From IMG/VR virus record IMGVR_UViG_3300042451_000642: DNA of 64,000 nucleotides. The stretch is one strand, 5' to 3'. Within the stretch, counting starts at the first letter, position 1; each line of letters opens with the position of its first letter. The notes beneath the pieces are model-generated. The model was given only the letters and a program-made list of their open reading frames with translations, made no database searches and had not been told where the DNA came from. This document shows, piece by piece, positions 2,938-63,060 of this stretch. Source of the stretch: an uncultured virus (IMG/VR IMGVR_UViG_3300042451_000642) (Duplodnaviria; Heunggongvirae; Uroviricota; Caudoviricetes). The position numbers and the translations under genes were made by a program.

Positions 2938-2955
2938 AATTTATATTTATAAGAT

Positions 2956-4062: not shown

Positions 4063-4075
4063 AAATAATTAAATT

Positions 4076-9484: not shown

Positions 9485-9574
9485 GGGGAGGTGGGTGAGT
9501 GGTTTAAACCGACAGCCTCCGAAGCTGCTATTGGACTTAACATTCAATCGAGAGTCCGAATCTCTTCCTCCCCG
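9485..9574 (+). tRNA. Class II (Ser-type body) tRNA with anticodon CCG
   Basis: Acceptor GGGGAGG/CCTCCCC; D arm GGTGAGTGGTTTAAACC; anticodon arm ACAGC-CTCCGAA-GCTGC; variable arm ATTGGA-CTTAACA-TTCAAT; T arm GAGAG-TCCGAAT-CTCTT; discriminator G; CCA not encoded (CAA follows). Confidence 0.9.
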
Positions 9575-9607
9575 CAATTTTATAAACTTTTCTTAAACAA
9601 AAAACAG

Positions 9608-12009: not shown

Positions 12010-12020
12010 TCCCTTTTTTT
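11993..12020. terminator. Bidirectional intrinsic terminator
   Basis: AAAAAGGGACT-TTAT-AGTCCCTTTTT between convergent genes. Confidence 0.8.
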
Positions 12021-14929: not shown

Positions 14930-16017
14930 TTATTTATTTCTGTTTTAATAAAATTTAATGCAGATTCAATTACCTGATGCATATCATAGTACTTGTATTC
15001 GGCCAATCTACCGCCAAAATGTATATTCTTTAACTTATTCGATTCTATTTTATATTTTTGATAAATCTCATTATTATCCATATCGTTAACTGGATAATAT
15101 GGTTCAGTTTCATTCACCTTATATTGAGTAGGATATTCATAAGTTACCCAAGTGTGATTAGTAATATTTTCTTTTTCAAAATGTTTATGTTCAATAACAC
15201 GAGTGTGTTGTGTTTTTGAATCTGTGTAGTTTATGACAGAACAACCTTGGTAATTATCCATATCCTTTTTAAAGTGTTCGAAACGGGTTGTTTTATATTC
15301 CAACTCACCAAATTTGTAATTAAAAAACTTATCTATTGGTCCCGTGTAAATTACACGATTATGTTCAGGTAATTTATCTGTAAAATAATTAGTGTTAAGT
15401 TTAACCTCAATACCATCTAATAACTTTTCAAAAATTTGGGTGTATCCACCGATAGGTATACCTTGATACTTGTCATTGAAATAATTATTATCATATGTGA
15501 ACCTAACTGGTAATCTTTTAATAATTTCTTTTGGTAGTTCGTTGCAAGGTTTTCTCCATTGTTTTTCGGTATAACCTTTGATTAATTTTTCATAGACATC
15601 TTTACCAACTAACTTAATTGCTTGATTTTCCAAATTATTTGGATTATCAATTTCTTTTGATTGAGAATCAATAACATCTTTAGCCTCTTTAGGTGTTGTT
15701 ACATTCCATAGTTTATTAAATGTCCACATGTTAAACGGTAACGAATATAATTCACCTTCATAATTGGCAACAGGATTATATCTGAAATTGTTAAATTCAA
15801 CATATTGGTTAATCCATTTCCACACATCTTCATTTGATGTATGAAATATGTGTGGACCGTAGGTGTGAATGTTTATACCGTCTCTATTTTCTGTGTGACA
15901 ATTACCACCAATATGATTACGAGATTCAATAACTAAAACTTTTTTACCCGACTTAGTTAATTCATGCGCACATATGGACCCATATAATCCAGCACCTACA
16001 ATCAGATAATCGTACAT
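14926..16017 (-). CDS. glf: UDP-galactopyranose mutase
   Basis: IVGAGLYG, HIGGNC, YGPHIFHT, YFNDKYQGIP, GRLAEYKYYDM. Confidence 0.95.
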   Translation of the reverse strand: MYDYLIVGAGLYGSICAHELTKSGKKVLVIESRNHIGGNCHTENRDGINIHTYGPHIFHTSNEDVWKWINQYVEFNNFRYNPVANYEGELYSLPFNMWTFNKLWNVTTPKEAKDVIDSQSKEIDNPNNLENQAIKLVGKDVYEKLIKGYTEKQWRKPCNELPKEIIKRLPVRFTYDNNYFNDKYQGIPIGGYTQIFEKLLDGIEVKLNTNYFTDKLPEHNRVIYTGPIDKFFNYKFGELEYKTTRFEHFKKDMDNYQGCSVINYTDSKTQHTRVIEHKHFEKENITNHTWVTYEYPTQYKVNETEPYYPVNDMDNNEIYQKYKIESNKLKNIHFGGRLAEYKYYDMHQVIESALNFIKTEINK

Positions 16018-16772
16018 TACCACTTATGTTTAAAGAGTACCAACTTATTTTCAAAATAAACATTACCATTACCATCTTGTTTTGTTCCAATAGGACTTGG
16101 GTAATGTGTGTGGTTATGAATATCGTATGGCATTTCTATTACGTTATATTCTGATTTGGTATTAATTATAAATGAAATTAACCATTGTTGTTTTGCATAG
16201 TGTTTAAACATTTTATCAACTAAAGGATATAATGGGATGTAATCGTTTGCCAATTTCTGCCAAGTTTTTTTATTCATAGCAATTAAACCGGTGTTATAAA
16301 CCTTAACCTTTCTCCAATTAACATCAAAAAATTCGGGATACATTGTTCCATTATAACCTAATCTTGGAGCTTCATCATATAACGTATCTGTTGGTGATGC
16401 GTTATAACCTATATAAACATCACCATCTTTAAAGTTGGAATACATTTCCCTTTCTTCGTCAGTAATATTTCTTTGTAGATACATGTCCCCATCAGTATAA
16501 AAAATAACGTCATCATCATTAAATTTATCAAAATATTGTGCGAAAATAAACTCGCCATGCTGTGTACAATTTATTGGACTTAATGCTTTAATTTTTGATG
16601 GGTCCTGCTTGGCAATTGATATTTTTGAAGTGTTTATACTGAAATCTTCATTACTTAATAGAACTAAGACATTTTCATCAAAGTTTGAATTCATTTCTAA
16701 TGACCCTAAATAAGGTTCTATTTTTTTTAAATAGTTAAAATCGGAACCTGTTGCTAAAATTAATTTATTCAT
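16017..16772 (-). CDS. Putative glycosyltransferase (DxD-type)
   Basis: FYTDGD, YNTGL motifs; located inside the sugar cluster. Confidence 0.55.
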   Translation of the reverse strand: MNKLILATGSDFNYLKKIEPYLGSLEMNSNFDENVLVLLSNEDFSINTSKISIAKQDPSKIKALSPINCTQHGEFIFAQYFDKFNDDDVIFYTDGDMYLQRNITDEEREMYSNFKDGDVYIGYNASPTDTLYDEAPRLGYNGTMYPEFFDVNWRKVKVYNTGLIAMNKKTWQKLANDYIPLYPLVDKMFKHYAKQQWLISFIINTKSEYNVIEMPYDIHNHTHYPSPIGTKQDGNGNVYFENKLVLFKHKW

Positions 16773-16827
16773 TTTCTTTTGTCAAGTCTAATTTATTATA
16801 TACTGCTAATACAAATGTTATATTCAT
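16765..16827 (-). pseudogene. 20-codon relic of the 5' end of the GT2 gene that starts at 13961
   Basis: Encodes MNITFVLAVYNKLDLTKENE*, versus MNITFVLAVYNKLDLTIECY for the intact gene. Confidence 0.8.
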
Positions 16828-17441
16828 TAATTTTTAATAAAATTTTCTCTATGTCTTCTATAATATAGAAGACCTTTTTTGACCCATTCCATTTTAGCAC
16901 CAGCACGCTTAAACCCATTATAAAGAAATAAATCTTCTTGTGAATGAATCCCACCAGTTGCTTGGTAACCAATTGATTGGGCTAATTTAGTGTTGTACAT
17001 CATCGATCCATGATGTCTTTGAAATCTAGACCAATACAAGTCACCTTGGTATGGTGTCATCTCAGGGCCGTGCCTATTTAATAATCCTCTTTTAGAATCT
17101 CCAGTCACAACAATATCATATGTTACAACATCAGCATTTACTTTATCTAATATCTCTAATGTATCTGCTCTCAACCAGTTATCTGCACCTAAAAACATAC
17201 ATTTATCGGTTGTCACTCTCATCAACATATCCTGAAAATTTGCAACAGTACCCATGTTTTTTTCCCTCAACACATATTCAACTTCAGGATATATTTTTGG
17301 TAGGTGACCACAATCACCAACACCGTCATCTACAAATAAAATCTTATCAGGTTTTCTCGATTGACATAAAACACTTTCAATACAATGTGCGGCTAAATGT
17401 CCATATTGATATGAAGCAATCACAACTGTTATAGTACTCAT
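16827..17441 (-). CDS. Glycosyltransferase family 2
   Basis: VVIASY, VDDG, FLGADN, EDL motifs. Confidence 0.8.
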   Translation of the reverse strand: MSTITVVIASYQYGHLAAHCIESVLCQSRKPDKILFVDDGVGDCGHLPKIYPEVEYVLREKNMGTVANFQDMLMRVTTDKCMFLGADNWLRADTLEILDKVNADVVTYDIVVTGDSKRGLLNRHGPEMTPYQGDLYWSRFQRHHGSMMYNTKLAQSIGYQATGGIHSQEDLFLYNGFKRAGAKMEWVKKGLLYYRRHRENFIKN

Positions 17442-18172
17442 GGTATATGGTTTACATTAATATTACGAATTATTTCACCATTTTTCAAGTAATCAGGATA
17501 TGTTTTTGTTGATTTTGACCTACAGAATCCATTCATATATGTCATTCTATCTTTCTTTGATTGATTTGGCTCACTACCATGAACAGATAAAACTGACCAT
17601 ATCAAAACATCACCTTTATTTGCGGTATATTTCTTACCACTTAAGTCACCTCTTTTAAATTCTCGTAAATTATTTGGAAGCGGAATCCTCATTGTCTTAT
17701 GTGAACCATCAATAAACTCAATTGCACCATTGTCCTCTGTTATTTCATCAACGGCAATTATTGTTTGGAAATAATCATCCTCTACATCGTTATTGAAATT
17801 TATATCCTCTCTAAACATAACGTCTTGATGCCACGCAAATTGATCTTGGTCACCACTTTCTCTAAAATAAATTTGATTATTTATTTGTTTAACATCATCA
17901 CCAATAAAATTTTTAACCAAATTAATCATCCTTTCATCCGTTCTAATTTTATTCAGATATTCGTTAACAAGTGACGGAAAAAAAACTAACAATCTTTTAT
18001 CATTTTTCTTTTCACTTGGTACGTGTGGATAACCACTTTTTTTAATATCCTCATCTCTCACAGAATAAGCATTCTTTTTAATTTCGTCACACTCTTCTGA
18101 CGTAAAAACATTTGACATAACTATAATACCTTTTTCGTTATATTCTTTCTTAAGTTGTTCAAAATCAATCAT
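17438..18172 (-). CDS. PhyH-family 2OG-Fe(II) dioxygenase
   Basis: WHQD, NGAIEFIDGSHK, GDVLIW..VHGS..N..R. Confidence 0.85.
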   Translation of the reverse strand: MIDFEQLKKEYNEKGIIVMSNVFTSEECDEIKKNAYSVRDEDIKKSGYPHVPSEKKNDKRLLVFFPSLVNEYLNKIRTDERMINLVKNFIGDDVKQINNQIYFRESGDQDQFAWHQDVMFREDINFNNDVEDDYFQTIIAVDEITEDNGAIEFIDGSHKTMRIPLPNNLREFKRGDLSGKKYTANKGDVLIWSVLSVHGSEPNQSKKDRMTYMNGFCRSKSTKTYPDYLKNGEIIRNINVNHIP

Positions 18173-18681
18173 AGGTATGGTCTATATATTTTATAATTAT
18201 GGTCTTTATCTTGTGGATTTCTTGACCCCTGCGTTACGCTCCACGCTTTTTCATAACCCATTTCCTTTACACACTCAATTGCTAAATCATTGAATTTACC
18301 ATATGGATATGCAAAATATTTCATTGGAAATGGTGGAGTTATTTCTTTTATAATTTCATCTTTTTTCAGTAACGTTAAATCCGGATGACTCCAAGTGTGC
18401 CAACCAATTTCAAAATCATATTCATCACACATTTCATTTATTTGTTCCCATGTACAATATTTTTCTAGTTTTGGAACATATTGTAAATCAAAATAATTGT
18501 CACCACCAATAAAATTACCCATGACAAAAAATATTCCGGTTTTATTTTTTAAAATGTCTTTATTTTCATAAACATTTAAATAAATCCCATCAAAACCAAG
18601 AGGTTCATTTGAGTTTAATACTTGTTCTCTTGTGTGGTAATTAGAATGTCTAATGTTACCGATATTATGTAGTAGTCTCAT
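18169..18681 (-). CDS. Polysaccharide deacetylase (NodB-like)
   Basis: FDG, EIGWHTWSHPDL, FAYPYG. Confidence 0.8.
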   Translation of the reverse strand: MRLLHNIGNIRHSNYHTREQVLNSNEPLGFDGIYLNVYENKDILKNKTGIFFVMGNFIGGDNYFDLQYVPKLEKYCTWEQINEMCDEYDFEIGWHTWSHPDLTLLKKDEIIKEITPPFPMKYFAYPYGKFNDLAIECVKEMGYEKAWSVTQGSRNPQDKDHNYKIYRPYL

Positions 18682-19138
18682 ATAATCTCACTATTTGTTT
18701 ATATTCTCTATAATTAAATTCAATCTCTTTTATTATTTTACCAAAATCAGACCAAATCATCCAATCCTTTATGCCACCAACAAGGACATATTTTTTAGCA
18801 GATTCGTGAATCCAGTTCTTTATTTGTTCATTATTATATTGTCTGTATAATGTCCCGGTTGTCATAACTAAATCATATTTACCTTCCGGTTTTAATAATC
18901 TATTTACATTATTTGGTAATCTAGATGATGCATTATCAGACAATTCGATGCCATATATTTTATTTGCTGGTATATCCTTAGTTATATAACCCTCACCACA
19001 ACCAATGTCTAATGCTGTATCATATTGGTCTAATAAAGACAAAATTAAATCTTTTCTTTTTTTATCATCTGGATTTGTTTCATATGACCAAGGGTCCGGT
19101 TTATTGTACCAATTTTCTAACTCTTGTTTTGTTTGCAT
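18665..19138 (-). CDS. SAM-dependent methyltransferase (NodS-like)
   Basis: DPWSY, ALDIGCGEG. Confidence 0.75.
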   Translation of the reverse strand: MQTKQELENWYNKPDPWSYETNPDDKKRKDLILSLLDQYDTALDIGCGEGYITKDIPANKIYGIELSDNASSRLPNNVNRLLKPEGKYDLVMTTGTLYRQYNNEQIKNWIHESAKKYVLVGGIKDWMIWSDFGKIIKEIEFNYREYKQIVRLYETTT

Positions 19139-19147
19139 TATATATAA

Positions 19148-19729
19148 TTAATTATGTACGTATAATGGTTTACTTATTTTTTCAATCTTACCTTTTGGAA
19201 ACTTTTGTAGATACTCTTCCACAAATTTACCGTCAGCCTGTATGTTCGTAACATCCAACTTCATTTGTTGTGCATATTTAGTTCTTACCATAAAATTACC
19301 AATATCAATATGTCCCCATTCAGGTTTACATTGGATATGAACATACTGAGAATTTGTCCAATTGTGAATCATGTCACAATAAACAAAATGTACATCTGGA
19401 TTTGCCCTACTAAACATGTGGTCAACAAATACGGGAGTGTAATAATTATCTTCGCCAGTCATGATGACCCATTCCTCTTTAGCATGTTCTAAACCATAAT
19501 TTCTAGGAGTGTGACCCCAATCATTATATCTTTCAGGTAATATAGTGAATCTAATCCTATCATCACCCTCAAAATATTTAATTATTTTATCTAATGTACC
19601 TTCAGGTGGACAATCTGCTACCACATGTATTGACCAATCTTCACTTCTTTGTGCAAATATGGAATTGATTGTGCACATCAAATGGTGAGGTCTATCATAT
19701 GTTGGTATTATAAATTCTATTTTACTCAT
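19148..19729 (-). CDS. Glycosyltransferase family 2
   Basis: IIPTYDR, RNYGL, EDNYY. Confidence 0.8.
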   Translation of the reverse strand: MSKIEFIIPTYDRPHHLMCTINSIFAQRSEDWSIHVVADCPPEGTLDKIIKYFEGDDRIRFTILPERYNDWGHTPRNYGLEHAKEEWVIMTGEDNYYTPVFVDHMFSRANPDVHFVYCDMIHNWTNSQYVHIQCKPEWGHIDIGNFMVRTKYAQQMKLDVTNIQADGKFVEEYLQKFPKGKIEKISKPLYVHN

Positions 19730-19787
19730 TTTTTTTTATTTAATATAGTTATTTTTTCTGACAATTTATAATGTTTAATAATAATTT

Positions 19788-20669
19788 TTATTTAGTATTA
19801 TTTATAAAATTAATTATACTTTGCCAAGCCTTATCTTCGTATAATTTATATACATTATCATTTTTTTGATTTTTTGTTCCTATTCGTTTTCTAGGGTGTA
19901 CTTGATTATGTCCTTTTAATCTAGTATTAATATGATATTGAGGTATTCCTTTTTTTGAAAAAAACATTTCTAAACAATAATCTTCTCGAGCAAAATGAAG
20001 ATCTAAAGGTAAAAATGGATATGGGAGATTCTGAGATAGTGCAGTCATATTCCCATCTATTTTTAATTTTTTTAATTTAATTACAGTCGGCTCAAATTGT
20101 TCATTAAATTTATTTAATTCATCTAATGTTATGTAATCTGCACAATTAAAAGGTTTAGGTGCTTGTTCTGGCCGGATAGGAGGACCATTTCTTGGAAATT
20201 GATGTATCCAAGGATGTTCAACCTCATCCCAAGTATTATCCCACATTTTTCTAGTTGCTAATGATAGAAAATGAGGTTCTTCTATAACAATATTTGATAA
20301 TAAATAAAAATAATCTTCAGGTACTAAACAATCACTTTCTCCCCATACAATATATTTGTAATCATATTCCGACCCGTATATATCTCTTCTCCAATCACCT
20401 ATATTATAAAATGGATCTGAATCTTTTTTAGTTATTATTTCGGATTTACTAATTAATGGATGTTGAAGGAAATGTTTAAACATTTTTTCAGGTTCAATTC
20501 CTTCTTCTGGTTTTTCTATATATGTTTGAGAATTTAAACATATTATAATATCTACATCTAATTCACTATGTATAATAGATTCTTGTAATGAATCTAATGT
20601 TTCTAAAATCATTTCAGATTCATACCACATTATATGTAATGTATATAAAATTTTACCCATATTATTCAT
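19788..20669 (-). CDS. Putative glycosyltransferase
   Basis: WGESDCL and RED motifs; cluster context. Confidence 0.45.
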   Translation of the reverse strand: MNNMGKILYTLHIMWYESEMILETLDSLQESIIHSELDVDIIICLNSQTYIEKPEEGIEPEKMFKHFLQHPLISKSEIITKKDSDPFYNIGDWRRDIYGSEYDYKYIVWGESDCLVPEDYFYLLSNIVIEEPHFLSLATRKMWDNTWDEVEHPWIHQFPRNGPPIRPEQAPKPFNCADYITLDELNKFNEQFEPTVIKLKKLKIDGNMTALSQNLPYPFLPLDLHFAREDYCLEMFFSKKGIPQYHINTRLKGHNQVHPRKRIGTKNQKNDNVYKLYEDKAWQSIINFINNTK

Positions 20670-21537
20670 ATTTTAAAATTTGTTCTATTCTTTCTTCAAG
20701 AGTATATTTTGGTTTATAAATTGAAAGCATTAACTTAGGATTACAAACTCTATAAGATACTCCTATGGGTTTATTTGTTAAATGTAATATACCATTTTTA
20801 GGTTTCCAATCAGATATATCAAACATTGTTTTAGCTAACTCATTAAATGAAGTTGATATACCACTTCCTAAGTTTAGTGCATCTACTTGAATATCATCAT
20901 TTACTACGGTCATTACCGCTTCAACAATATCTTCCATATGGATAAAATCTCTAACTTGATTCCCATCCCCCCAAATTTCAAAAGTATTAACTTTTCTTTT
21001 AATACGATTTATAAAGGAAGGAAATGGATAAGTTAAATCTTGGTCCGCTCCATAACCTGAAAATGGTCTAAAAACGTAAACTTTTGTTCCTTGTTCCCTA
21101 ACAAATTTAGCTAAATATTCTCCTGTTAATTTAGACCAGCCATAGGTATAATCAGGAAGTCTAATATCATCTAGATTAATATCAGATTCTTTTAAGTGAT
21201 ATTTTAATTCTGGTGTCTGTAAATGAATAGGGTAGGCTGCCGATGAACTAAAATATACTATTTTCGGTTGTTTTGTTTTTACAACCCAATTAAAAAATTC
21301 TGAATCGATTGATAAATCTGTTGCTACCGATAATGGTTCATTTTCAATTGTTTCTCTACCACCTACAATAGCTGCTAAATGAATAATTAAATCAAATTTT
21401 TCTACTGAGTGCTTAAAAAAATTTCTACAATCATTCCCTTCTTTTAAATCAATCCCTGTTATATCATGTTGATTTTTAAAGTATTTTAAAAAGGATCTAC
21501 CAACAAATCCTAAATGTCCCGTTATTAAAATTGTCAT
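20662..21537 (-). CDS. NAD-dependent epimerase/dehydratase
   Basis: TGHLGFVG, HLAAIVGG, YGWSK. Confidence 0.9.
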   Translation of the reverse strand: MTILITGHLGFVGRSFLKYFKNQHDITGIDLKEGNDCRNFFKHSVEKFDLIIHLAAIVGGRETIENEPLSVATDLSIDSEFFNWVVKTKQPKIVYFSSSAAYPIHLQTPELKYHLKESDINLDDIRLPDYTYGWSKLTGEYLAKFVREQGTKVYVFRPFSGYGADQDLTYPFPSFINRIKRKVNTFEIWGDGNQVRDFIHMEDIVEAVMTVVNDDIQVDALNLGSGISTSFNELAKTMFDISDWKPKNGILHLTNKPIGVSYRVCNPKLMLSIYKPKYTLEERIEQILKYE

Positions 21538-21540
21538 AAA

Positions 21541-22161
21541 TTAAATTGATTTGTAAAAATTATTTTGTTTTTCTTGACGTTCTATCGTCTTATGGTGTTC
21601 TATACAGTATTCTTCGTCTAAAGGTAATGATGAGAATTTTTGACCACCATAAACTTTCTCATGTACCTTACCATACCAACTCATTCCTTTCTTATATATT
21701 CTTCCTTGAGCATCCGGAAAATTTATCCATCCATTTTCATTAACTCCCCAACCCCACTTTTGAATATGTTCTTCGGTTATACCCTCCACAGTGTTAATCC
21801 TCGGTACAAAAATTAAATCAACATCTTTATTCATTTCCAATATTTGATGTAAATTTTTAACCATATACTCACTAATCATCTCATCTGCATCTAGTTGATA
21901 GATATAGTCACCTTTACAATAACCATTTAATATATTTTTAAAATCAGAGAAATTATTATTCCAATCGAAACATCTCCATGTTTGGACATTTGGAAATTTA
22001 TTATACGGTAATAAAAAATCTAATACTTCGGGATTACCATTTGTTTCATCATATAGAACTACAATTTCGTCTTGAGCTCTCTTGTGTTTCAGTAAGAAAG
22101 GTACTAATCTCTTTATCTCCTCCAATTCCTTGCAAACTGTTATTGCAAAACTTATCTTCAT
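21541..22161 (-). CDS. Glycosyltransferase family 2
   Basis: ISFAITVC, LDADE, WYGKVHE. Confidence 0.8.
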   Translation of the reverse strand: MKISFAITVCKELEEIKRLVPFLLKHKRAQDEIVVLYDETNGNPEVLDFLLPYNKFPNVQTWRCFDWNNNFSDFKNILNGYCKGDYIYQLDADEMISEYMVKNLHQILEMNKDVDLIFVPRINTVEGITEEHIQKWGWGVNENGWINFPDAQGRIYKKGMSWYGKVHEKVYGGQKFSSLPLDEEYCIEHHKTIERQEKQNNFYKSI

Positions 22162-22248
22162 ATTTCTTTTTATTTTCATTTATTGTTAATTCCTCACATT
22201 TCCAACACCACTCTCTATCATCCGTGTCCCAACTATGTCTTTCACATT

Positions 22249-22497
22249 TCATGCTCTATTTTCCCCCATTCTTAACCAATGGTTTAAATAATCAAAACCA
22301 TGATTACCACCGCCGTTTATACTTCTTGTTATTACATTAATAATTTCTTCATCAATACCTCTGGCAATTTCTTCTGACATCATTCTAGTTAATTCAGCCT
22401 CAGCATCTATACCATAATGCTCATGTTCTTGTGCTGACCACGTTGCGGTTAACGTACTTCTAATTACCCCGTGAAAAAATTTAAAATTCTTAACCAT
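22249..22497 (-). CDS. 82-aa protein: FKFFxG leader plus a segment resembling T4-type major capsid protein
   Basis: MVKNFKFFHG...LTATWS..HYGIDAEAELTRMMSEEIARGIDEEII. Confidence 0.6.
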   Translation of the reverse strand: MVKNFKFFHGVIRSTLTATWSAQEHEHYGIDAEAELTRMMSEEIARGIDEEIINVITRSINGGGNHGFDYLNHWLRMGENRA

Positions 22498-22726
22498 TTT
22501 GTATCTCCCTTGCAAATAATTTAAACTCTTTATCATTGTCGGTGAACAACATACTGGTATCTGAAGTTGGACTTAATCGAATTGAACATTCATTTGGTCC
22601 TGTTGCAAATACAATAGGTTCATTGTTTCCGAACTGAAAACAAAACTCAACATTCTCTGGTGTAAATGTATGTGGTTGAAAAAGAAGTGTTGGTGTTTCA
22701 TCACCTTTGAAAAATTTGAAGTTCAT
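22490..22726 (-). CDS. Small hypothetical protein (FKFFxG leader)
   Basis: Paralogous to 22729..23004 (QF.N.EP..F.T, FTD, FKLFAR). Confidence 0.65.
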   Translation of the reverse strand: MNFKFFKGDETPTLLFQPHTFTPENVEFCFQFGNNEPIVFATGPNECSIRLSPTSDTSMLFTDNDKEFKLFAREIQNG

Positions 22727-22728
22727 TA

Positions 22729-23004
22729 CTATTTTTTTGGTCTAGCAAATAATTTAAATGTTTTACCTGATGTCGGGTCGGTAAACTTAATATAACCCTC
22801 GTTAGTATTTTGTATCCTAATAATAACCTCAGGTGATTCTACGGTTTCATCTGCAGTTGTGAATAATTGAGGTTCGTCATTATCAAATTGAATCATCCAT
22901 TCACAGGGCATATATGTTTCAATTTTTGGTTTATCGTCAACCGTTAATTTATCAATAACCGATTGTAATAATTCCTCCTTTATTTTTTTTCTACCTCTTG
23001 CCAT
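22729..23004 (-). CDS. Small hypothetical protein
   Basis: Paralogue of 22490..22726. Confidence 0.65.
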   Translation of the reverse strand: MARGRKKIKEELLQSVIDKLTVDDKPKIETYMPCEWMIQFDNDEPQLFTTADETVESPEVIIRIQNTNEGYIKFTDPTSGKTFKLFARPKK

Positions 23005-23005
23005 A

Positions 23006-24253
23006 TTATTTAATTTTTGTTAATTTAGGTAAAATTAGTTTTTGTTCTTTTGGTTGTATTGAGAATGGATTGATGATGTCTTTAAACTTCTCTTTCATTT
23101 TTTCCATTGAGAATTTTTCTTTATTCTCATCACCCAACATCATAGACTTTTCTAAAAACTTATCATAGTCTTTGTAAACCAATTTAAAAACTTCAGTCAC
23201 TTCGTTGTAATTTGCGGTAAACCATTTAGAATCTTTTAATATGAAAGTATCGACTGCACTTTCGTGAACCTCAGTTAATTTTCCACCAATCATAATTGCT
23301 TTATCCATCGGTAAGAAATCCTTATGTCCCGACCAGTTTGATGCAATCACAGGTTTACCCGTCATCGTAAATTCTAATAAAGGTCTACCAAACCCTTCAC
23401 CTTTTGTAATCGTAACCATTGATTTAACTTTAGGATGATTATATAAATTATTCATCTCATCATTAGTTAAATCACCAAACAACAAATAGATTGATGGTGG
23501 ATTTTTATAATCACTCACTAACCCTTCTATCTTCTTTCTAAAACTTTCTCTTTCTTTAATTGAGAACGATGCGGATGATGTTTTAAGTATAAGTGCGGGT
23601 CTATCTTCAACATCCTTAAATGCTTCAGCGAAACATCTAATCAACATACCAACATCTTTTCTATCTTGACCTGTGTCACCCTTTAACCAATGACCAACAA
23701 ACAAGTAAGCAAAATCTTCTTTGATGTCAATGTCAATGTTGTTATAAACGTTGTTGTATATTTTGGTATCAACACCTTCGAATAGTACTTCTATCTGTCT
23801 TTCGATTTTGTGTTGTTTGATTAACTTACCCGTGTTTTGTTCATTCTCATTATAAACTGTTTGTAACAAAACATCTTTTGAAAAAGTGGACGTTGTAACA
23901 ATTAAATCCATTCTATTACAACCATCAATCCAATCCTTAGGTGCAATAGTTGTTTCAATACCAGCAGTAATCCCGATATTAAATTTACCAACTCTTTGGA
24001 ATTCATTTGGAACAGTTACTTGAACGTAAATGTCTGGAGTCTTTTCTAATTGATTGATAATATTAGACTCAATCCATTTATGAAATAAATTATCTTCCAA
24101 TGCCGTCATCGGGGTTGAACCCCACATACAACTATCAATCTTGATTTCAAACAAATCCATTTCATAAAGTGCTTGTAACAAATCTCTTGAGTGTGCACCG
24201 TATCCACTTCTTGTTTTAACTGGTCCTCTAAATAATAAAAATGGTTTATTCAT
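23006..24253 (-). CDS. Glycosyltransferase family 4
   Basis: SGYG, RKDVG, KGEGFGRPLLE. Confidence 0.85.
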   Translation of the reverse strand: MNKPFLLFRGPVKTRSGYGAHSRDLLQALYEMDLFEIKIDSCMWGSTPMTALEDNLFHKWIESNIINQLEKTPDIYVQVTVPNEFQRVGKFNIGITAGIETTIAPKDWIDGCNRMDLIVTTSTFSKDVLLQTVYNENEQNTGKLIKQHKIERQIEVLFEGVDTKIYNNVYNNIDIDIKEDFAYLFVGHWLKGDTGQDRKDVGMLIRCFAEAFKDVEDRPALILKTSSASFSIKERESFRKKIEGLVSDYKNPPSIYLLFGDLTNDEMNNLYNHPKVKSMVTITKGEGFGRPLLEFTMTGKPVIASNWSGHKDFLPMDKAIMIGGKLTEVHESAVDTFILKDSKWFTANYNEVTEVFKLVYKDYDKFLEKSMMLGDENKEKFSMEKMKEKFKDIINPFSIQPKEQKLILPKLTKIK

Positions 24254-24254
24254 A

Positions 24255-25613
24255 TTATATAATCTTGTATAAATTAAATTTACTTCTTGGTTTAAAATTC
24301 TCTAAGGTTTGTTCGATACCCTCAATCATTTTATCACACATTATTTTATTTGATAGATTGTTAATCATAAACTTTCTACCCTTTAATCCTTTTTCTTTTC
24401 TTTTCTTCTTACCAATTTTATACATTTCCATGATGGCATTTGCAACATCATTGTCATTAACTCTATCATCGAAGATATATGGTGTTGGTACCGAACCATT
24501 TAGATTAATTGCCGATGACCAAACAGGTTCAACCCAATCACCATGATTTATGTTGCCATGTACTTCTTTATTGTGAAGTGTACCTACATTAATGTAATCA
24601 TCTTCAGTATAATCAAATCCACATTGGTCTTGTAAACCACCAGTAACATTAACAATGATTGGCACACCTGCCATTAAACTCTCAGCAGTTGTTAATCCAA
24701 ATCCTTCATTGTTTGCAATGTTAATCGTACAATCAACACCATTGTAAATTTCATTTAATTTATCTTGTTCCAATTTTAAATTAGTGAACTTAACATCATA
24801 ATCTTTACAAACAGCATCAATTACCGCAGGCAAATCTGTACCATTTTCATCAACTGGATTTGTGTGCATTAGTAACAAACACTTATCTGCCTTTTCTTTT
24901 GGTAACATATCACAGAACAATCTAAATGAATAAATTACATCACTTGGTTGTTTCCTTCTAATGTTTCTGCTGTTGAAGAATAAAACAAAATCATATTTCT
25001 TATCACCATGAATTAAATTATTAATATCATCCGATATTCTATCCAATGGTTTAAATAAATCAGGATTAATGCCGTGAGGAACATAACTAATTTGCCAATC
25101 TTTCAATGGATTGAAAGTTACTTTATCGGTTCTCTTACCAACACGATGTACAATACCATACGTTTGTTTAGATATACAACCCAACCAATCGCAAGATTCA
25201 AAAACATCTCTATTATATTGTGGGTCTGGTAAATCATCCCATATATGATAAAATAATATTGGAGTGTGTTGTCTTATTTCGTGTTCCACATCGTACAACC
25301 ACTGCCAATAATGTGGGTCAGTAAAGTGTAAAATGGCGTCAGGTTTTTCTTCATCTATTAATTTACGAAGAATACCAACGTCACCATAACCATTATATGG
25401 AATAATTTTCAAATTAGCATCTTTAACACCAGTCCTTGTTCTAATATCGTCGTTAACATCAACAACTTTACCAAACTCTGGATGTTTAATTGCCGCACCT
25501 AATTGTACCCAATCATATTTGTGAATGGTACCCATCACAATTTCTTTCGACATTGTGGCAATACCACTTGTCATTCTTAAATCATCAGATAGTAATAATA
25601 TTTTTTTCTTCAT
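24255..25613 (-). CDS. Glycosyltransferase family 4
   Basis: VPHGI, RNIRRK, NEGFGLTTAESL. Confidence 0.85.
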   Translation of the reverse strand: MKKKILLLSDDLRMTSGIATMSKEIVMGTIHKYDWVQLGAAIKHPEFGKVVDVNDDIRTRTGVKDANLKIIPYNGYGDVGILRKLIDEEKPDAILHFTDPHYWQWLYDVEHEIRQHTPILFYHIWDDLPDPQYNRDVFESCDWLGCISKQTYGIVHRVGKRTDKVTFNPLKDWQISYVPHGINPDLFKPLDRISDDINNLIHGDKKYDFVLFFNSRNIRRKQPSDVIYSFRLFCDMLPKEKADKCLLLMHTNPVDENGTDLPAVIDAVCKDYDVKFTNLKLEQDKLNEIYNGVDCTINIANNEGFGLTTAESLMAGVPIIVNVTGGLQDQCGFDYTEDDYINVGTLHNKEVHGNINHGDWVEPVWSSAINLNGSVPTPYIFDDRVNDNDVANAIMEMYKIGKKKRKEKGLKGRKFMINNLSNKIMCDKMIEGIEQTLENFKPRSKFNLYKII

Positions 25614-55247: not shown

Positions 55248-55925
55248 ATGAAAATTCTTTTAATTGCAAAAGGTAGATGTGGATCACATTCATTAATGGA
55301 TTGGTTAAGTAATGATTTTAATTTGGTAAAAATATATGAAAATGGGGATGTAGATACTTCAATCTTAAATGACTATATTCTTAAAAGACATCCGTCATTA
55401 GATTTGATTACTGATGGATATGATTATGTTATAAGATTAATTAGAGAAAATACGATACTAACTTCTGAAAGTAATGTGTGGGCACAAGAAAAACAAAAAT
55501 ATCATCCGGTTGACAACGAGAAATATATTATAGATGAGGACTTTTTAATAAATAACCATGAAGAAATATGGAATAAAAAAATAGGATATGATGAGTTCAA
55601 TAATATGATAACTAATATTAATGCGGGTCTATTGGTTACATATGAAGAAATCTTTATACATGGAACAGGTCAGGAAAAGATAGAGAACTATATGGGATTT
55701 AAATCTAATTCAAAATTAAACACTGACGATAAAAAAGGTAGATTACATGTAATGGATAAAACATTACACACCACATATGATATTGAATACAAAAAATTCA
55801 CTGATAAGTTAAAAGAAATGGAAAATTTTATTAAAATTAGAAATTTAACGATTGATAAATTAATAAAAGAAAAAGACAAGGTGATTAAAGATTTAGTCTC
55901 TTATATACCAAAAAAAATGATTTAG
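55248..55925 (+). CDS. Sulfotransferase-like P-loop protein, paralogue A
   Basis: IAKGRCGSHSL (PAPS-loop-like), LIREN, VTYEE. Confidence 0.55.
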   Translation: MKILLIAKGRCGSHSLMDWLSNDFNLVKIYENGDVDTSILNDYILKRHPSLDLITDGYDYVIRLIRENTILTSESNVWAQEKQKYHPVDNEKYIIDEDFLINNHEEIWNKKIGYDEFNNMITNINAGLLVTYEEIFIHGTGQEKIENYMGFKSNSKLNTDDKKGRLHVMDKTLHTTYDIEYKKFTDKLKEMENFIKIRNLTIDKLIKEKDKVIKDLVSYIPKKMI

Positions 55926-57367: not shown

Positions 57368-57474
57368 TATGGGAACAATATTTCCGGTCATAATATCATT
57401 TACAATTGTAATAGGATTGACTATATTTTTAATGATAATTGACTACATCACAAAAAAAAGATAAAAAAAATTAT

Positions 57475-58212
57475 ATGAAAATTTTAGTAATTGCAAGGGG
57501 AAGATGTGGTTCACATTCATTAATAGATTGGTTAGGAGAGGAATTTGACTTAAAAACCATCTACGAAAATGAAGATACGGACACTTCCAATCTTAAAAAC
57601 TATTGTATTAAAAGATTTCCGACACCAGATTTAGTCACTGAGGGATACGATTACATTATAAGATTGATTAGGGAAAATACAATACTAACCGCTGAGAGTG
57701 ATGTGTGGGCACGAGAAAAACAAAAATATCACCCGATGGGTCGGGAAAAATATATCATAGATGAATCCTTTTTGAGAAAAAATCACAATGAAATATGGAA
57801 TAAAAAAATTGGTTACGATGAATCCAATGATTTAATAACGAATATGCCTGTGGGTATATTAGTTACTTATGAAGAATTATTTTTACGTGGAACGGGTCAG
57901 GAAAAGATAGAGAAGTATATAGGTTTTAAATCTATCACAAAATTAGATACCGACCTTAAGAAAGGTAGATTTCACATAATGGATAAAACGGCATTTATCA
58001 CATATGATTTAGCATATAATAAAACCACCATTTTAGAAAAAATTGTTAAAGAAAAAGATTTAATTATTGATAATCTAAACGAAAAGATTAAAAATTTGTC
58101 AAATCCTCAAGAAATATCTAAAGAAAAAGATTTAATTATTGATAATCTAAACGAAAAGATTAAAAATCTTAACGAAACAATTGTAGATTTGGTATCATCA
58201 AAAAAGAGATAA
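57475..58212 (+). CDS. Sulfotransferase-like P-loop protein, paralogue B
   Basis: Aligns along most of its length with 55248..55925; start placed at MKILVIARGRCGS. Confidence 0.55.
   Translation: MKILVIARGRCGSHSLIDWLGEEFDLKTIYENEDTDTSNLKNYCIKRFPTPDLVTEGYDYIIRLIRENTILTAESDVWAREKQKYHPMGREKYIIDESFLRKNHNEIWNKKIGYDESNDLITNMPVGILVTYEELFLRGTGQEKIEKYIGFKSITKLDTDLKKGRFHIMDKTAFITYDLAYNKTTILEKIVKEKDLIIDNLNEKIKNLSNPQEISKEKDLIIDNLNEKIKNLNETIVDLVSSKKR
58047..58167 (+). repeat. 49-nt exact direct repeat, period 72 nt, in frame
   Basis: 58047-58095 equals 58119-58167 (KEKDLIIDNLNEKIKN twice). Confidence 0.9.
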
Positions 58213-58535
58213 TGATTAAAAGAAAGAAACCCTTTGCAAAGATTGTAAAGGAATGGAATGAGGCATCCACCATGGAAGTATGGGAAGGTGTAAGGGATAA
58301 CTTTATATTTGGATTCCTTGGTGCAACGATTGTTGTATTCATTGCCACCCGAGCGGACCTTATGGTTCTATTCGGGTATCTGACTTACTACTTTTTCATG
58401 GGAAGGATTGTTAATAGACCCAAATACGTTACAGACTTAGGTAAACTAATTGTATTCCCCATCCCATCAGCTTTGGGAGCCTTTGCTGGGTATAAGTTCT
58501 CATATATTATTCAAGAGTTAATCCAACGTGTATGA
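58212..58535 (+). CDS. Membrane protein
   Basis: Three hydrophobic segments. Confidence 0.65.
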   Translation: MIKRKKPFAKIVKEWNEASTMEVWEGVRDNFIFGFLGATIVVFIATRADLMVLFGYLTYYFFMGRIVNRPKYVTDLGKLIVFPIPSALGAFAGYKFSYIIQELIQRV

Positions 58536-59113
58536 AGATATGTATAATATCATCCATAGGTAGATCTGGAACAACCTCACTATTTGATATGATGAGTTTG
58601 TGTCTACCAAGATACTACACATGTTTAAATGAACCATTCGGTCGATTTCAAAAAGGGCATGAGATGAATCTTATTGAAAACGCCCCCAATGTTCTTGTAA
58701 AGGAGTTATTAAATAATACGGTTAACCATAAGGTTTTCCCATATGATTGGATGTACCAGACCTTTGATAAGGTTATTGTGATGGATAGAAGGAATAAGTG
58801 GGAACAGGCGGAGAGTCACGCAGCACATTCATATAAAGGGGATAACTATAAAAGTTGGCACAATAGAAGGGAATACGACTTAACAAACATACCCACGGAG
58901 TATATTAAGGCATTAGCAGACCAATCGGAGGATTTAATGCAATATCATAGGGGTATGATTTACTATTACGAGGATGTGTTTATGGAACATAACTTGGATT
59001 TGTTGATGGAGATTATGAATTCCGTGGGAATAACAGAGATACCCAATCAAATACTAAAGGATTATTTCTATAGTCCCAAGAAGAAGGTAAGGATAGTAAA
59101 GACCCTAATTTAA
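58532..59113 (+). CDS. Sulfotransferase-like protein
   Basis: SIGRSGTTSL, NEPF, DRRN..EQAES, YYED. Confidence 0.6.
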   Translation: MKICIISSIGRSGTTSLFDMMSLCLPRYYTCLNEPFGRFQKGHEMNLIENAPNVLVKELLNNTVNHKVFPYDWMYQTFDKVIVMDRRNKWEQAESHAAHSYKGDNYKSWHNRREYDLTNIPTEYIKALADQSEDLMQYHRGMIYYYEDVFMEHNLDLLMEIMNSVGITEIPNQILKDYFYSPKKKVRIVKTLI

Positions 59114-59503: not shown

Positions 59504-60892
59504 ATGGGAAATAAATTAAAGGCAATACCAGGAACAAGATTCAATATAATAACCATCATAAAGGAAACCGAGGGTAAAAGATATAAGGATGGAACCCTTG
59601 CAAGGATGGTTACAATTCAATGTGATTGTGGTAACATAAGGGATAAGAATTTGGCACTTGTATTAAGAGGTGAGGTAAAGAGTTGTGGGTGTTTATCAGG
59701 TAAAGGTGATTTAACCAAAGATCAAGTAGGGAAGAAATATAATATGTTAACTATTACGGGGGAAGCACCTAAGAGACGTTCAAAAGGAGGTCATAGTCAA
59801 AGGTTCGTTAAGGTTAAGTGTGATTGTGGTAGTAAAGAGTACGAGGTCCAACTAAGTGCTATTGTCAGTGAAAATACAAAATCCTGTGGATGTTCCAAAT
59901 TAAATGGTGGTATAAAAAATAAGATAGATTATATAGGAAAGAGATATGGTAGATTAACTATTATAAAGGAATTACCTGGAGTAAGAAAACCTGGAGGATC
60001 CATTCAAAGAATTATGGAATGTAGATGTGATTGTGGTGTAGTTAAACCACTAAGAATATCTGACATAAGAAGTGGAAGGACAACATCGTGCGGATGTTAT
60101 ATGAGACAGGTGTCAAGTGAATCAAATGCCATGAATGTGGAAATTGGTACAAAGAGAGGATTCATGACATTACTAAAAGAAACTGACAAGGTAACAAAAT
60201 ACAAGAAAGATGGTGGAATGTCAAGTAGTATAAGGTATGTAATGGTTAAATGTGACTCTTGTGGTGATATTGAGGAGATGACCCTTCATAGGTTCATAAC
60301 GGAATCACAACCAATCCATTGTGGATGTTTGACATCCAAAACAACCATGGGGAGATTAAATAGTAAAGAGATGATTATTGAGCGGTATAATAGTCTTGAG
60401 ATTCTTAAGGAACTTGATGAGGTTGAATATTATACACATGATGGGGTAATATATAAACAAAGGATGGTAGAATGTAGATGTGAATGTGGTAGTGTTGATT
60501 CTTACAAATATAAAGATTTATTATTAAGTAATATAAAGTCTTGTGGATGTAAGAGTCATTTTGATAGTCATGGGTTATGTAAGAATGAAAATACTCGACG
60601 AATGTATCAAAGATGGAAAAACATGTTGAGTAGATGTTATAATCAAAGAGATGTACATTATCATCATTATGGAGGTAGAGGAATTGGAGTATGTGAAAGA
60701 TGGAGAGAGTCATGTGAGAACTGGATTGAGGATATGGGATTTCCACCTACATGGGAAGACACTAACGATAGAATCGATGTGAATGGTGACTATGGACCAG
60801 ATAACTGTAGATGGGCAGACCATAAAACTCAGAGTATTAATAAGAGAAGTAGTAAGTGGTATAGGAATGGAGAAAAAAATCCCACCATATAA
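59504..60892 (+). CDS. HNH-type endonuclease with five CxCG...CGC zinc-binding repeats
   Basis: Five CDCG/CECG...(S/H)CGC units; W.NM..RC, YGGRGI.VC, DRID.NG.Y.P.NCRW. Confidence 0.8.
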   Translation: MGNKLKAIPGTRFNIITIIKETEGKRYKDGTLARMVTIQCDCGNIRDKNLALVLRGEVKSCGCLSGKGDLTKDQVGKKYNMLTITGEAPKRRSKGGHSQRFVKVKCDCGSKEYEVQLSAIVSENTKSCGCSKLNGGIKNKIDYIGKRYGRLTIIKELPGVRKPGGSIQRIMECRCDCGVVKPLRISDIRSGRTTSCGCYMRQVSSESNAMNVEIGTKRGFMTLLKETDKVTKYKKDGGMSSSIRYVMVKCDSCGDIEEMTLHRFITESQPIHCGCLTSKTTMGRLNSKEMIIERYNSLEILKELDEVEYYTHDGVIYKQRMVECRCECGSVDSYKYKDLLLSNIKSCGCKSHFDSHGLCKNENTRRMYQRWKNMLSRCYNQRDVHYHHYGGRGIGVCERWRESCENWIEDMGFPPTWEDTNDRIDVNGDYGPDNCRWADHKTQSINKRSSKWYRNGEKNPTI

Positions 60893-60893
60893 T

Positions 60894-61781
60894 CTTCACC
60901 TGTTCACGTTTACGTGAACGTTCACTGTCCGTGAACATAGGTATTTTGTGAACACCTTTACTATCCTGAAGGGAGGAGACGAGAGTCTCCGACCGACAAT
61001 TACACCCTATAAAATTACCCCTCAGAACCCCTCCATAGGGGTTTTATTTTACCCCGAATTTTTTCCTGTTTATACCACTAAAAACCCTACTTTTTCCTGT
61101 CTGTTTTATCGTGATCAATTAATATATCTAAAACTATCTTTTTCTATCCCATATTTGGGTTCTAGTATAATTTATCCACAATTCCCCACTTTCTCCCACT
61201 TACTAGGAATGTTCACTGGGATTGACCCGTGAGCGAATCACAGACCATTTTATTTTTTCTACCAGAATATACCCCTAATATCATTATATTATTACGGTCG
61301 GACTCTTCGAGTCCTCCCTTCAGGATGTCATACAACGTCTTAGTATAACCCTTTATATATTATATTAATCTGTCATACATTAGGTTCCACGTGGAACCCT
61401 GAAGGGGGACCGAAGGTCCCCCGTATAATAGAATATTCGTAATACAGGATGAAGGGGACCGAAGGTCCCCGAGTATACTTATAATACTTTTATACGGTCC
61501 TGATGTGATACGTCTATAATCCCTGAACCGTAATACAAACATTACTGGGGAAACCCACCCATGGGAAATAGTTTGCCAAACAACATTAAGATTACTGGGG
61601 AGACCAATATTGTTTGGCAGATTATACGGGGACCTTCGGTCCCCTTCAGGAGAATCTCGGAATAATCCTATGGAAATTAAAAAAACCCTTAGGGATTTTC
61701 CGAAGGGTTCTTAGTATAGTACAATATATGTCTTACAAGGAAAGGATGAAGGGGGACCGAAGGTCCCCCGTAAGTAATACG
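60894..61781. repeat. Non-coding region with hairpin repeats and palindromes
   Basis: GGGGACC-GAA-GGTCCCC at 61405, 61454, 61752 (+) and 61628 (-); variant hairpins at 60975 and 61300; GTTCAC/GTGAAC palindromes at 60902-60936; GGTTCCACGTGGAACC at 61383-61398. Confidence 0.9.
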
Positions 61782-62666
61782 TTATATCCATTTATAAATA
61801 AAGTTGAACTTATCTAAATTACTTGAAAAACGAACAGGAACTAAATCATTTGATTTAAGTATGTATTTTATTCTTTCTGTTAATAGTGTTTCTAATAGTT
61901 CTTTTTTAGGTACTGCATAATCTTCAGAAAGTTTTGGGTACTCTATATAGATTGGCATGAAATCGAAGTCTACTTCCCCAGTAATCTTGTTGTGGCTTCT
62001 TGCATCACATTTGAACTTAAGTTTAACATTTTTGGGGAATTTATAATATACCTTGATTTGTTTTAATTCACCATCATCTCCCATACTCGTATTGATTTCA
62101 TCTGGTATTGTAAAGGTTCCCTCCTCGACGAAGTCAAGATGAACCTGAAGGTTATGTGGAGTATTCTTTTGGGATTGGAGTTGTCTCAGACCTCTATTAA
62201 TTCTTTCCAAGGTGGTGTCGTCGAGTTCCATTACAGATCTGAATCCCACGGGATCTTTAAGAAAAGTCATCAGAGTCTTTACTTTACGAACTTCTTTTGT
62301 CCATTGAAGTATCTCCACGGGTAATACAGTGTCCATTGCACTGTTTAAGTTAAATCCAATGAATTCATTCATTCCCCCAGTAAATAATAGGTCACTGATC
62401 CTCACCATGGTTTCACCCATCTCATTACCATCTTTATCCATGTACTCGTCATACATGGGCTTGAACTTCTCCGCAATCTCGGTCATCAACTTGAATATTA
62501 TATCTGGTTGGACCTGAGTCTCACGTATTACGATGTTCAAGTAAGATCCAAATGTACCAAAAGTTTCAGGTAGTGTATAATAAATCTCACCGTTTATTGA
62601 GTTCAGCGGACCCCTCAGAGATTTTACGAATCTCTCGAAATCTGATTTGTCTAAAATTTTTCCCAT
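61782..62666 (-). CDS. Hypothetical protein
   Basis: 294 aa; TATTTAT 4 nt upstream of the ATG on the minus strand. Confidence 0.7.
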   Translation of the reverse strand: MGKILDKSDFERFVKSLRGPLNSINGEIYYTLPETFGTFGSYLNIVIRETQVQPDIIFKLMTEIAEKFKPMYDEYMDKDGNEMGETMVRISDLLFTGGMNEFIGFNLNSAMDTVLPVEILQWTKEVRKVKTLMTFLKDPVGFRSVMELDDTTLERINRGLRQLQSQKNTPHNLQVHLDFVEEGTFTIPDEINTSMGDDGELKQIKVYYKFPKNVKLKFKCDARSHNKITGEVDFDFMPIYIEYPKLSEDYAVPKKELLETLLTERIKYILKSNDLVPVRFSSNLDKFNFIYKWI

Positions 62667-62734: not shown

Positions 62735-62914
62735 CTATCGTCCCATTAACTCGTTACGGAACTGTACGGCCTTTCTCTTGCTTGAGAAATTCTTAGAGTA
62801 CTTAGTACCATTAACACTTACACGTACACGGTAAGATGAACCATCATGATAGATGTTGTCGGCAACAGGAACATATGTAGTAACTGTGGTGCGACGGGAT
62901 GTTGTTTTTTTCAT
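62735..62914 (-). CDS. 59-aa AP2-like DNA-binding protein (not in track)
   Basis: NIYHDGSSYRVRVSVNGTKYSKNFSSKRKAVQFRNEL. Confidence 0.6.
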   Translation of the reverse strand: MKKTTSRRTTVTTYVPVADNIYHDGSSYRVRVSVNGTKYSKNFSSKRKAVQFRNELMGR

Positions 62915-63060
62915 TTGTGACTATTTTAAGTTTATATATAAAATATAACAAATAATATCCAAATAAAAAAATCCTGCCAAAAAATATTTTACCCCAGTAA
63001 ACTTAGACCATCTTGCTGTTGGTCAGAGGTGAATTCCCCAGTAATGTTCCGAGTCCCTGA

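Follow-up and report, generated by a model that had tools for sequence, protein, structure and literature searches.

What is the role of a gene-free stretch crowded with small hairpins in the genome of an uncultured phage? The window analysed here, 64,000 nt of DNA from an uncultured virus of the Caudoviricetes, carries such an array at positions 60894–61781, between a plus-strand HNH endonuclease gene and a series of minus-strand genes. The first-pass annotation regarded it as a cis-acting locus for replication, termination or packaging, or as a structured ncRNA. Our analysis indicates that the array is real and conserved, a control region in DNA whose hairpins follow an unusually clear grammar; it probably marks the boundary of a terminal repeat. 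The proposal of a cis-acting locus stands as a conserved, single-copy DNA locus; among the roles proposed, packaging or the making of genome ends is best supported, and the locus may also serve replication priming. Intrinsic terminators are unlikely.

As judged from its PHROG hits, the source of the window is a large phage. The relatives bearing the array are bS21-type Bacteroidota jumbo phages of freshwater, and several of their contigs span 298–336 kb. The test for bS21 was made on these relatives; the window does not reach the bS21 and terminase region. All three relatives that are at least 90% complete (G007, G009 and G002) encode bS21; in G007 and G009 its gene and that of the large terminase are about 4 kb apart. 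G007, with 323,865 nt and 97% completeness, serves for the whole-genome analyses below, together with G008, a 181-kb fragment. The array loci were collected by searching with the exact 21-base unit (8 viral loci), with a looser unit (22 loci, one of them unrelated) and with a neighbouring gene for a 59-aa protein (16 loci), and the sets from the unit and gene searches overlap. L055 was rejected as an array locus, being an unrelated coding match. Among cultured phages, the array sequence finds a single chance match of 26 nt, and neither the far element described below nor the 59-aa protein finds any match.

The six hairpins led by TGAAGGG that had been annotated are present, at 60967(+), 61322(−), 61400(+), 61450(+), 61648(−) and 61747(+), and each of the six is followed by a perfect stem of 6–8 bp. 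Four of them have the expected core GGGGACC-GAA-GGTCCCC. The loop was described as GAA throughout, which holds for five of the six. Hairpin 1 (60967–60995, plus strand) instead consists of TGAA, GG, a tandem GA/GA mismatch, a 6-bp stem and a four-base GAGA loop; of the conserved elements, it lies farthest from the cassette block. Its inverted partner, hairpin 2 (61295–61322, minus), combines a tandem GA/GA with a different 6-bp stem and a GAA loop. This agrees with the reported inverted pair, 60963–60995 and 61295–61326, of identical flanks and different inner stems; the flanks look identical because a tandem GA/GA mismatch recurs at a similar place in many stems. Stems of 8 bp occur in hairpin 3 (61400–61425, plus) and hairpin 6 (61747–61772, plus), and stems of 7 bp in hairpin 4 (61450–61471, plus) and hairpin 5 (61627–61648, minus). 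All four have a GAA loop, which in hairpin 6 becomes GTA in L003 and L005. The second inverted pair, 61398–61429 and 61621–61650, extends to GTATAAT, just as first noticed. The pattern TGAAGG-N7-30-CCG has 12 matches in the window, 7 of which fall in the array, compared with 3.21 ± 1.82 in shuffled sequences, none of 100 shuffles reaching 12. Among the window hairpins listed, those with a stem G+C above 80% are all inside the array.

On the other hand, two further palindromic features pointed out earlier are accessory. The perfect 16-bp palindrome (61383–61398) exists, but the window has five such perfect 16-mers in all, and L005 has lost this one. The GTTCAC/GTGAAC palindromes (60902–60953) are likewise real and occur also in L002 and L008, but they are absent from two close relatives, L003 and L005, and we treat the cluster as an optional part. 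We also considered a protelomerase site and rejected it; the 16-bp palindrome is short and poorly conserved.

To describe the unit, we surveyed by eye 14 non-identical loci including the window (the sequence of L009 is incomplete). They contain 58 TGAAGG-led hairpins, three to six in each full array and two in the examined stretch of L060. The order of the unit is a TGAA foot, GG(G), a stem of free sequence and free length, a closing C-G pair in nearly all cases, and a tail, GTA or GAC in most units. Loops of the form G..A close 49 of the 58 units (37 GNA and 12 GNNA), and the remaining nine, four of them in L022, have other loops. Stem length ranges from 7 to about 15 bp, so that the distance from loop to foot varies. 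Both orientations are present in every full array, while the order of the units differs between lineages. In 11 aligned units, all 88 stem cells are paired, 16 of them with two-sided changes, and the closing C-G pair is found in every unit. Their covariation score exceeds all 500 shuffles and all slid controls. These 11 units were picked for equal length, were picked as hairpins and are mutually related, so the score demonstrates maintained pairing and is not to be read as a probability.

Free but paired stems, G..A loops and both orientations argue for DNA mini-hairpins rather than one RNA. C-G closed GNA and GNNA loops are far more stable in DNA than in RNA, and such loops occur at ssiA (CCGAAGG), at the G4, St-1 and alpha3 origins and in N4 promoters, according to the accessible parts of two sources (PMC13037366; PMC4496689). 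Most simply, the units are read as a signal in DNA, active on either strand once it is single-stranded or extruded. In DNA energies computed with ViennaRNA, the TGAA strand is favoured by only 0.4–1.2 kcal/mol, and sheared GA pairs lie outside the model; the strand polarity therefore rests on loop conservation and on the literature.

A structured ncRNA, or alternatively a set of promoters for an N4-like virion RNA polymerase, could also account for covarying stems, and the whole array region folds with a z of −9.1. However, the ncRNA proposed at first becomes unlikely, since the units face both ways and change their order among relatives, 9 of the 12 four-base loops are not GNRA, and the region has no match in Rfam. 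In the sole RNA run, X20, coverage amounts to 170 nt, all in the HNH gene, and is nil in the array, which is a weak absence. N4 promoters do need a C-G closed G-N-A loop, but this loop is fixed at −11 in N4, as the part of the source consulted describes (PMC4496689), while the stems here vary in length. Furthermore, no genes start at the units, which lie downstream of converging genes, and PF00940 (T7-type RNA polymerase) is detected in none of three near-complete relatives, the control being silent in that search. We consider these RNA-centred explanations very improbable. Intrinsic terminators are unlikely as well. The hairpins have no T tails and go unscored in a terminator scan, which returned one site in the array (61038–61055) and none of the six hairpins. 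The promoter scan found 2 sigma-70-like sites, compared with 3.2 expected.

The hairpins are not scattered over the genome like ordinary terminators, and the array is conserved across relatives. In G007, four of five matches to the general motif are located at 173.9–174.4 kb, and the fifth lacks a stem; the three matches of G008 all lie within 0.5 kb. For the exact core in five records, 12 of 12 placed matches are in the array, five further matches in G002 are unplaced, and one-mismatch matches outside the array number three. Among 185,579 prokaryote genomes, we find 45 matches, all single, in unrelated taxa and forming no arrays.

The gene slot on the left of hairpin 1 is variable. In the window it is occupied by the HNH endonuclease gene (59504–60892, plus; phrog_374, E 2e-73), which adjoins the array, in L002 by a TnpB/Cas12f-like gene (PF07282/PF01385), in L021 by another HNH and in L003 by an ORF without a Pfam match. 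No nuclease fills the slot in L008, L025 and L029, in which the array persists. Since the slot varies or is empty, the array is not part of the nuclease genes; rather, nuclease genes insert next to an indispensable site. The TnpB/Cas12f-like gene of L002 (L002:1084–2451) stops about 60 nt short of hairpin 1; its guide RNA would reach into the first part of the array, and no transposase is seen in the locus.

The fixed TGAA foot 5′ of a hairpin, together with the TnpB-like neighbour in L002, recalls REP-like or IS200/IS605-like ends, in which foot and hairpin are read by an HUH nuclease and which would be tied to the adjoining mobile nuclease genes. Against this, the Y1 transposase family is found in none of three near-complete relatives (6 of 14 controls positive), the units form a single locus without dispersed copies, the array outlives the nuclease in the three loci named above, and the prokaryote matches are solitary ones. 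This explanation is extremely improbable and largely refuted.

Besides the hairpins, the array contains several conserved words. In the alignment A1 of 14 array loci, the most constant features are a C/T-tract block, TTATCGTGATC and GGGATTGACCC. The C-tract/T-tract block (61005–61116, plus) has invariant or near-invariant columns and ends in the conserved word TTTTATCGTGATC, and GGGATTGACCC (61218–61228, plus) is the most conserved word of the array. Two TGTCATAC words, the only copies in the window, surround an A+T-rich stretch (61326–61378, plus). An inverted pair of TGCCAAACAA words at 61574–61619 comprises its only two exact copies in the window, and this word recurs in the arrays and cassette spacers of relatives. 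A AAAAAACCCTTAGGGA block followed by CTTAGTATAGTACAA (61680–61724, plus) is kept in L002, L003, L005, L008 and L021, and in part in L022. We also notice TTACTGGG twice in the array (61541 and 61591); in G010, a long ORF-poor spacer of the block (L080:500–1150) has many copies of it.

A consensus DnaA-box word, TTATCCACA, matches exactly at 61172–61180 on the plus strand. An exact DnaA-box word is found somewhere in 11 of the 14 aligned arrays, at varying places and in varying directions. With three exact copies in the window as a whole, the word is not rare by itself, and words of this kind are not rare in the related genomes either.

This word bears on the main rival of a terminal repeat, a strand-displacement origin, in which the DnaA word, the repeats and the A+T-rich patch would open the duplex and the hairpins would act as primase signals on both strands. 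The CCGAAGG core is that of the ssiA mini-hairpin, GTTA loops occur at St-1 and alpha3 in the portion of the source available (PMC13037366), and both loop types are present in the arrays. Units on both strands, the frequent DnaA word and a greater depth on one side of the array (see below) also agree with an origin. However, genes converge on the array, no initiator gene is identified next to it, a second conserved edge 14–20 kb away is left unexplained, and the DnaA-box region of T5 is not its origin, as stated in the accessible part of that work (10.1101/866236).

The GC skew also speaks against this origin. The plus strand does switch from G-rich to C-rich at 61 kb, as observed initially, but two more switches occur in the window, at 12 kb and 26 kb, each at a change of gene strand. 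The whole-genome profile of G007 shows about seven local switches, one of them at the array, and about 242 of 324 kb (about 75%) of the curve is one-signed, with no V shape. We therefore reject the array as a global skew extremum, that is, as a bidirectional origin or terminus, and the local change from G to C is the reverse of that at a bidirectional origin. Because the switches coincide with changes of gene strand, the skew reflects the coding strand and is silent on origin or terminus; the earlier argument from skew fails. An origin at the array is possible, though we hold it to be unlikely, and it is compatible with a terminal repeat, in which an origin can lie.

The switches at 12 kb and 26 kb are due to a block of glycosyltransferases and nucleotide-sugar epimerases that occupies 14 kb on the minus strand (12004–25613). 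Elsewhere in the window, we notice three tandem paralogues of phrog_1417 (unknown function; 1798–5185, 368–379 aa each) and an ARAGORN tRNA-Arg(ccg) at 9485–9575, which overlaps the start of a 333-aa ORF at 9491 and may be spurious. Three related-looking ORFs (55248–55925, 57439–58212 and 58532–59113) start with a P-loop-like motif and have no Pfam match; the two scanned against PHROGs have none there either. These ORFs may be sulfotransferase-like.

On its right side, the array bounds a block made up of small promoter-terminator cassettes, which measures 13.5–19.6 kb in the nine contigs showing both edges. The block starts in the window at 62915 on the minus strand, is transcribed toward the array and continues beyond position 64000; it was mapped in relatives. 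It consists of small genes with long spacers of their own and ordinary hairpin-plus-T terminators, all genes pointing at the array. Eight of 29 scanned block ORFs in G007 have PHROG matches, all of unknown function (ORFs below about 60 aa being partly covered). The word TGTCATAC marks the whole block in relatives and clusters by the array, with 12 of 18 matches within 157.2–174.3 kb in G007, 14 of 17 within 25.2–39.5 kb in G009, 5 of 6 within 10 kb in G003 and, more weakly, 8 of 11 within 105.8–122.9 kb in G008.

Between the array and the block are two minus-strand genes. A 294-aa ORF of no known family (61782–62666) is absent from this place in L021, L022, L025 and L027. The 59-aa gene (62735–62914), by contrast, points at the array and is near it in all 16 loci, with TGAAGGG units downstream in every one (one locus is incomplete). 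Its stand-alone protein is 68–100% identical across the clade. The predicted model (pLDDT 83) shows a three-strand sheet and a helix, and the best Foldseek rows, at E 0.29–0.34 and probability 0.89–0.92 with none at E ≤ 0.001, are integrase arm-binding and AP2 domains. We regard the protein as a candidate binder of short words, which is offered as a lead. Upstream of its gene on the minus strand (62940–62975), two TATTTG words are present, which resemble Bacteroidota promoter elements.

Such an arrangement may also be that of a transcription-control hub and nothing else, in which the early block ends, converging transcription stops and the small phage protein binds operator words. The hairpins would then extrude as cruciforms under transcription supercoiling and act as roadblocks or switches, while the genome would be permuted and a step in depth would reflect strain mixing. 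Genes converge at the array in all relatives examined, TGTCATAC and TGCCARACAA words recur through the block spacers, the gene for a DNA-binding-like protein, as modelled, always adjoins, and the terminase is T4-like. But the hairpins differ from the ordinary terminators of the block, lacking T tails and terminator scores, and the hub offers no explanation for a far G/C-tract element or for the words common to both edges. We judge it rather improbable.

This far element, a second conserved non-coding sequence, lies beyond the right end of the window. It is located at L039:15690–15900 (155.7–155.9 kb in G007) and in L077–L081, and it comprises A/T tracts, GGCATTGACCCCC and G/C runs. It aligns well and is single-copy in five of five further records. 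The exact pattern gives 37 matches in 36 viral contigs; the sole contig with two matches has them 1.7 kb apart (L159 and L185). The L054 contig, in which the element would have space, gave no match to the pattern, and neither did L029 and L068, where the space is borderline. Conversely, exact patterns did not find the array in 27 of the 36 far-element contigs, many of which are fragments. A copy of GGGGGGTAC near the right end of the window was considered as the far element and rejected, as it is inside a gene.

The two edges also correspond in their words. GGCATTGACCCCC, the core of the far element, is like GGGATTGACCC of the array, and the two words face each other. Both edges share ATTGACCC, in facing copies, and in some lineages the 12-base CTGCKCAYATTT stands at both edges, in the same direction in G009 and G010. 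Among 186 loci, CTGCKCAYATTT occurs only in array or far-element loci, and none is present in 17 stretches of G007. DnaA-box words and nuclease insertions are also found at both edges. In L080:1740–2250 (G010), an opposite-strand HNH-like ORF sits inside the far element and splits its two conserved parts. The first gene after the far element encodes a basic protein of about 180 aa in G007 (L039:16667–17212) and G009 (L073, about 15630–16190); it has no Pfam or PHROG match in G007, and the similarity between the two was judged by eye. Two conserved boundary sequences thus enclose the block, for which the cassette layout suggests early expression.

Two conserved edges with common words could also belong to a recombining or amplifiable segment, such as an excised circle, a tandem duplication or a recombination module, in which array and far element would resemble attachment sites and the 59-aa protein would bind arm sites. 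A doubled depth would follow from it too, and the predicted fold of the protein is weakly like integrase arm-binding domains. However, only short words are common to the edges, and the window, L003, L021, L063 and L025 have the same gene neighbourhood on the left flank, so no inversion is seen. We find a recombining segment of this kind very improbable as well.

Read depth also bears on a terminal repeat. In all three DNA runs, the depth roughly doubles across the array, taken as one mean per contig and summed over strains. It rises from 6.7 to 13.8 in X7, where a 2,182-nt contig without differences starts at 60963, from 20–21 to 43 and then 78 in X8, and from about 3 to 6.6 in X17. X8 and X17 show second strains, with loose ends at 60919 and 60964 and other letters, and X7 alone is fairly clean. 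At best, the step is placed to 60,963–61,675, that is, at or to the right of hairpin 1. The left flank is 91–95% identical among close strains; a mixture of strains would therefore usually be visible on either side, and in X7 it is not. The doubled depth points to a terminal repeat, which is suggestive but not proof.

Relative to the central word, 7 of 22 contigs end within 300 nt on the left and 2 of 22 on the right. The ends near hairpin 1 share no single base, and the variable gene slot explains them equally well. None of 37 far-element loci ends within 600 nt, and all 11 records of relatives are classed as 'linear, no end repeats'.

Taken together, we give an even chance to a long direct terminal repeat, about 14–20 kb, in a bS21-type Bacteroidota jumbo phage, with the array as its inner boundary. 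We infer the repeat, its cut positions, the part played by the hairpins and the protein that reads them as follows. The cassette block would be the repeat, collapsed into one copy in assemblies, and it would run from the far G/C-tract element, as the first packaging cut and left end of the chromosome, to the array as the right end. Its genes would enter the cell first and be read toward the array. There, convergent transcription, supercoiling, a nick or strand displacement may open the DNA, and an opened TGAA-led unit would fold on one strand only into a GNA or GNNA mini-hairpin. A phage protein would then read the single-stranded TGAA foot and the GTA tail beside a stem of free sequence. With units on both strands, either strand could be primed or nicked, by which the repeat would be duplicated and the second end made. 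T7 uses a hairpin beside its repeat to duplicate the repeat or make the second end, and SPO1 keeps host-takeover genes in a long repeat. A literature search on the repeat-side hairpin of T7 found nothing relevant.

The terminase is a difficulty for a terminal repeat. Its best matches, at 24–30%, are T4-like headful enzymes, PBECO4 at 26% is no closer than the headful phages, and the gene is located about 68 kb from the block. Phage CBB combines a terminase of the T4 gp17 type with a 22-kb repeat predicted from twofold depth, in the part of its description available (PMC5259590), so a T4-like terminase weighs against the terminal repeat and does not exclude it. A bolder proposal would make the TGAA-foot hairpins single-strand DNA signals of a new class. 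A phage enzyme would recognise the four-base foot and the tail, brought together by a stem of whatever sequence, and from copies on both strands would nick, prime and duplicate the 14–20 kb terminal repeat, or pause DNA entry behind it, in a phage with a T4-type terminase. We think this unlikely.

By what means long terminal repeats are duplicated, and what halts injection of the T5 type, has been asked for a long time. Natural variation among the arrays brings out a unit with definite rules, namely a fixed foot, a free paired stem, a DNA-type loop and strand polarity, together with a possible partner site and a small protein that is a candidate to bind. If the terminal repeat is true, the chromosome ends and the first-injected genes would be fixed for a widespread group of uncultured phages treated as circles; if the new signal class is true, it would supply a defined substrate for the unsolved regeneration of long terminal repeats. 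What is new here is the array as the edge of a cassette block, with a second conserved edge that shares its words, and the rise in depth. In the literature searched, which excluded most subscription papers, we found no published description of this array.

We then compared the array with known systems. The closest in genome type are the bS21-encoding freshwater Bacteroidetes phages of PMC9723584, which according to the available portion resemble the relatives in genomes of 298–336 kb, low G+C and a bS21 gene near the large terminase. In contrast, the main text there, as far as accessible, contains neither 'GC skew' nor 'origin' and leaves the genome ends undescribed, and its passages on 'terminal' or 'repeat' concern other matters. 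In the text available of PMC12619734, bS21, hairpins and skew are all unmentioned.

The hairpins themselves most resemble ssiA, the G4, St-1 and alpha3 elements and the N4 virion polymerase hairpins, which in the accessible sections are C-G closed GNA or GNNA, stable as DNA and strand-polar (PMC13037366; PMC4496689); the likeness to ssiA extends to the exact CCGAAGG core in four units of the window. Unlike these, the units here occur three to six per locus and in both directions in a 300-kb dsDNA phage, with a fixed TGAA foot, a GTA tail, free stem length and tandem GA/GA in many stems, and no cognate enzyme is known for them.

Among jumbo phages, twofold depth marks repeats of 10–17 kb in the phiCbK-like phages (PMC3556154, in the part seen). 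The block agrees with the long repeats of these phages and CBB in its size, in a roughly twofold rise of contig depth across the array and in a presumed collapse to one copy in assemblies, as their partly available descriptions give them (PMC3556154; PMC5259590). On the other hand, the step here rests on contig means at one edge, the phiCbK boundaries are at the terminase gene (PMC3556154, same part) rather than about 68 kb away, and the accessible text on phiCbK-like phages and CBB does not mention a hairpin array (PMC3556154; PMC5259590).

The nearest counterpart is found in T5, in the sections of one study that were available (10.1101/866236). At the inner end of its 10,139-bp repeat, Repeat Region 3, or the injection stop signal, is about 1 kb without ORFs, with nested repeats, palindromes and DnaA-box words; like the array, it is conserved more than its neighbouring genes, takes optional HNH insertions and borders a block of small genes of the first-expressed type, with a distant partner element in the block. 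The same source calls the region a 'bewildering array', without a defined working unit, and the T5 parts seen describe no repeated mini-hairpin with a TGAA foot. The array, in turn, has no sequence match to any cultured phage. The T5 stop signal has eight DnaA boxes paired in two inverted repeats, whereas the window array has one exact box with no one-mismatch box beside it, and the arrays of relatives carry 0–2. No gene with the PHROG name A1, A2 or dmp is present among the 29 scanned block ORFs of G007. Differing from T5 in the DnaA boxes and in A1/A2, the array is not a member of that system, but it would work like the inner repeat region of T5.
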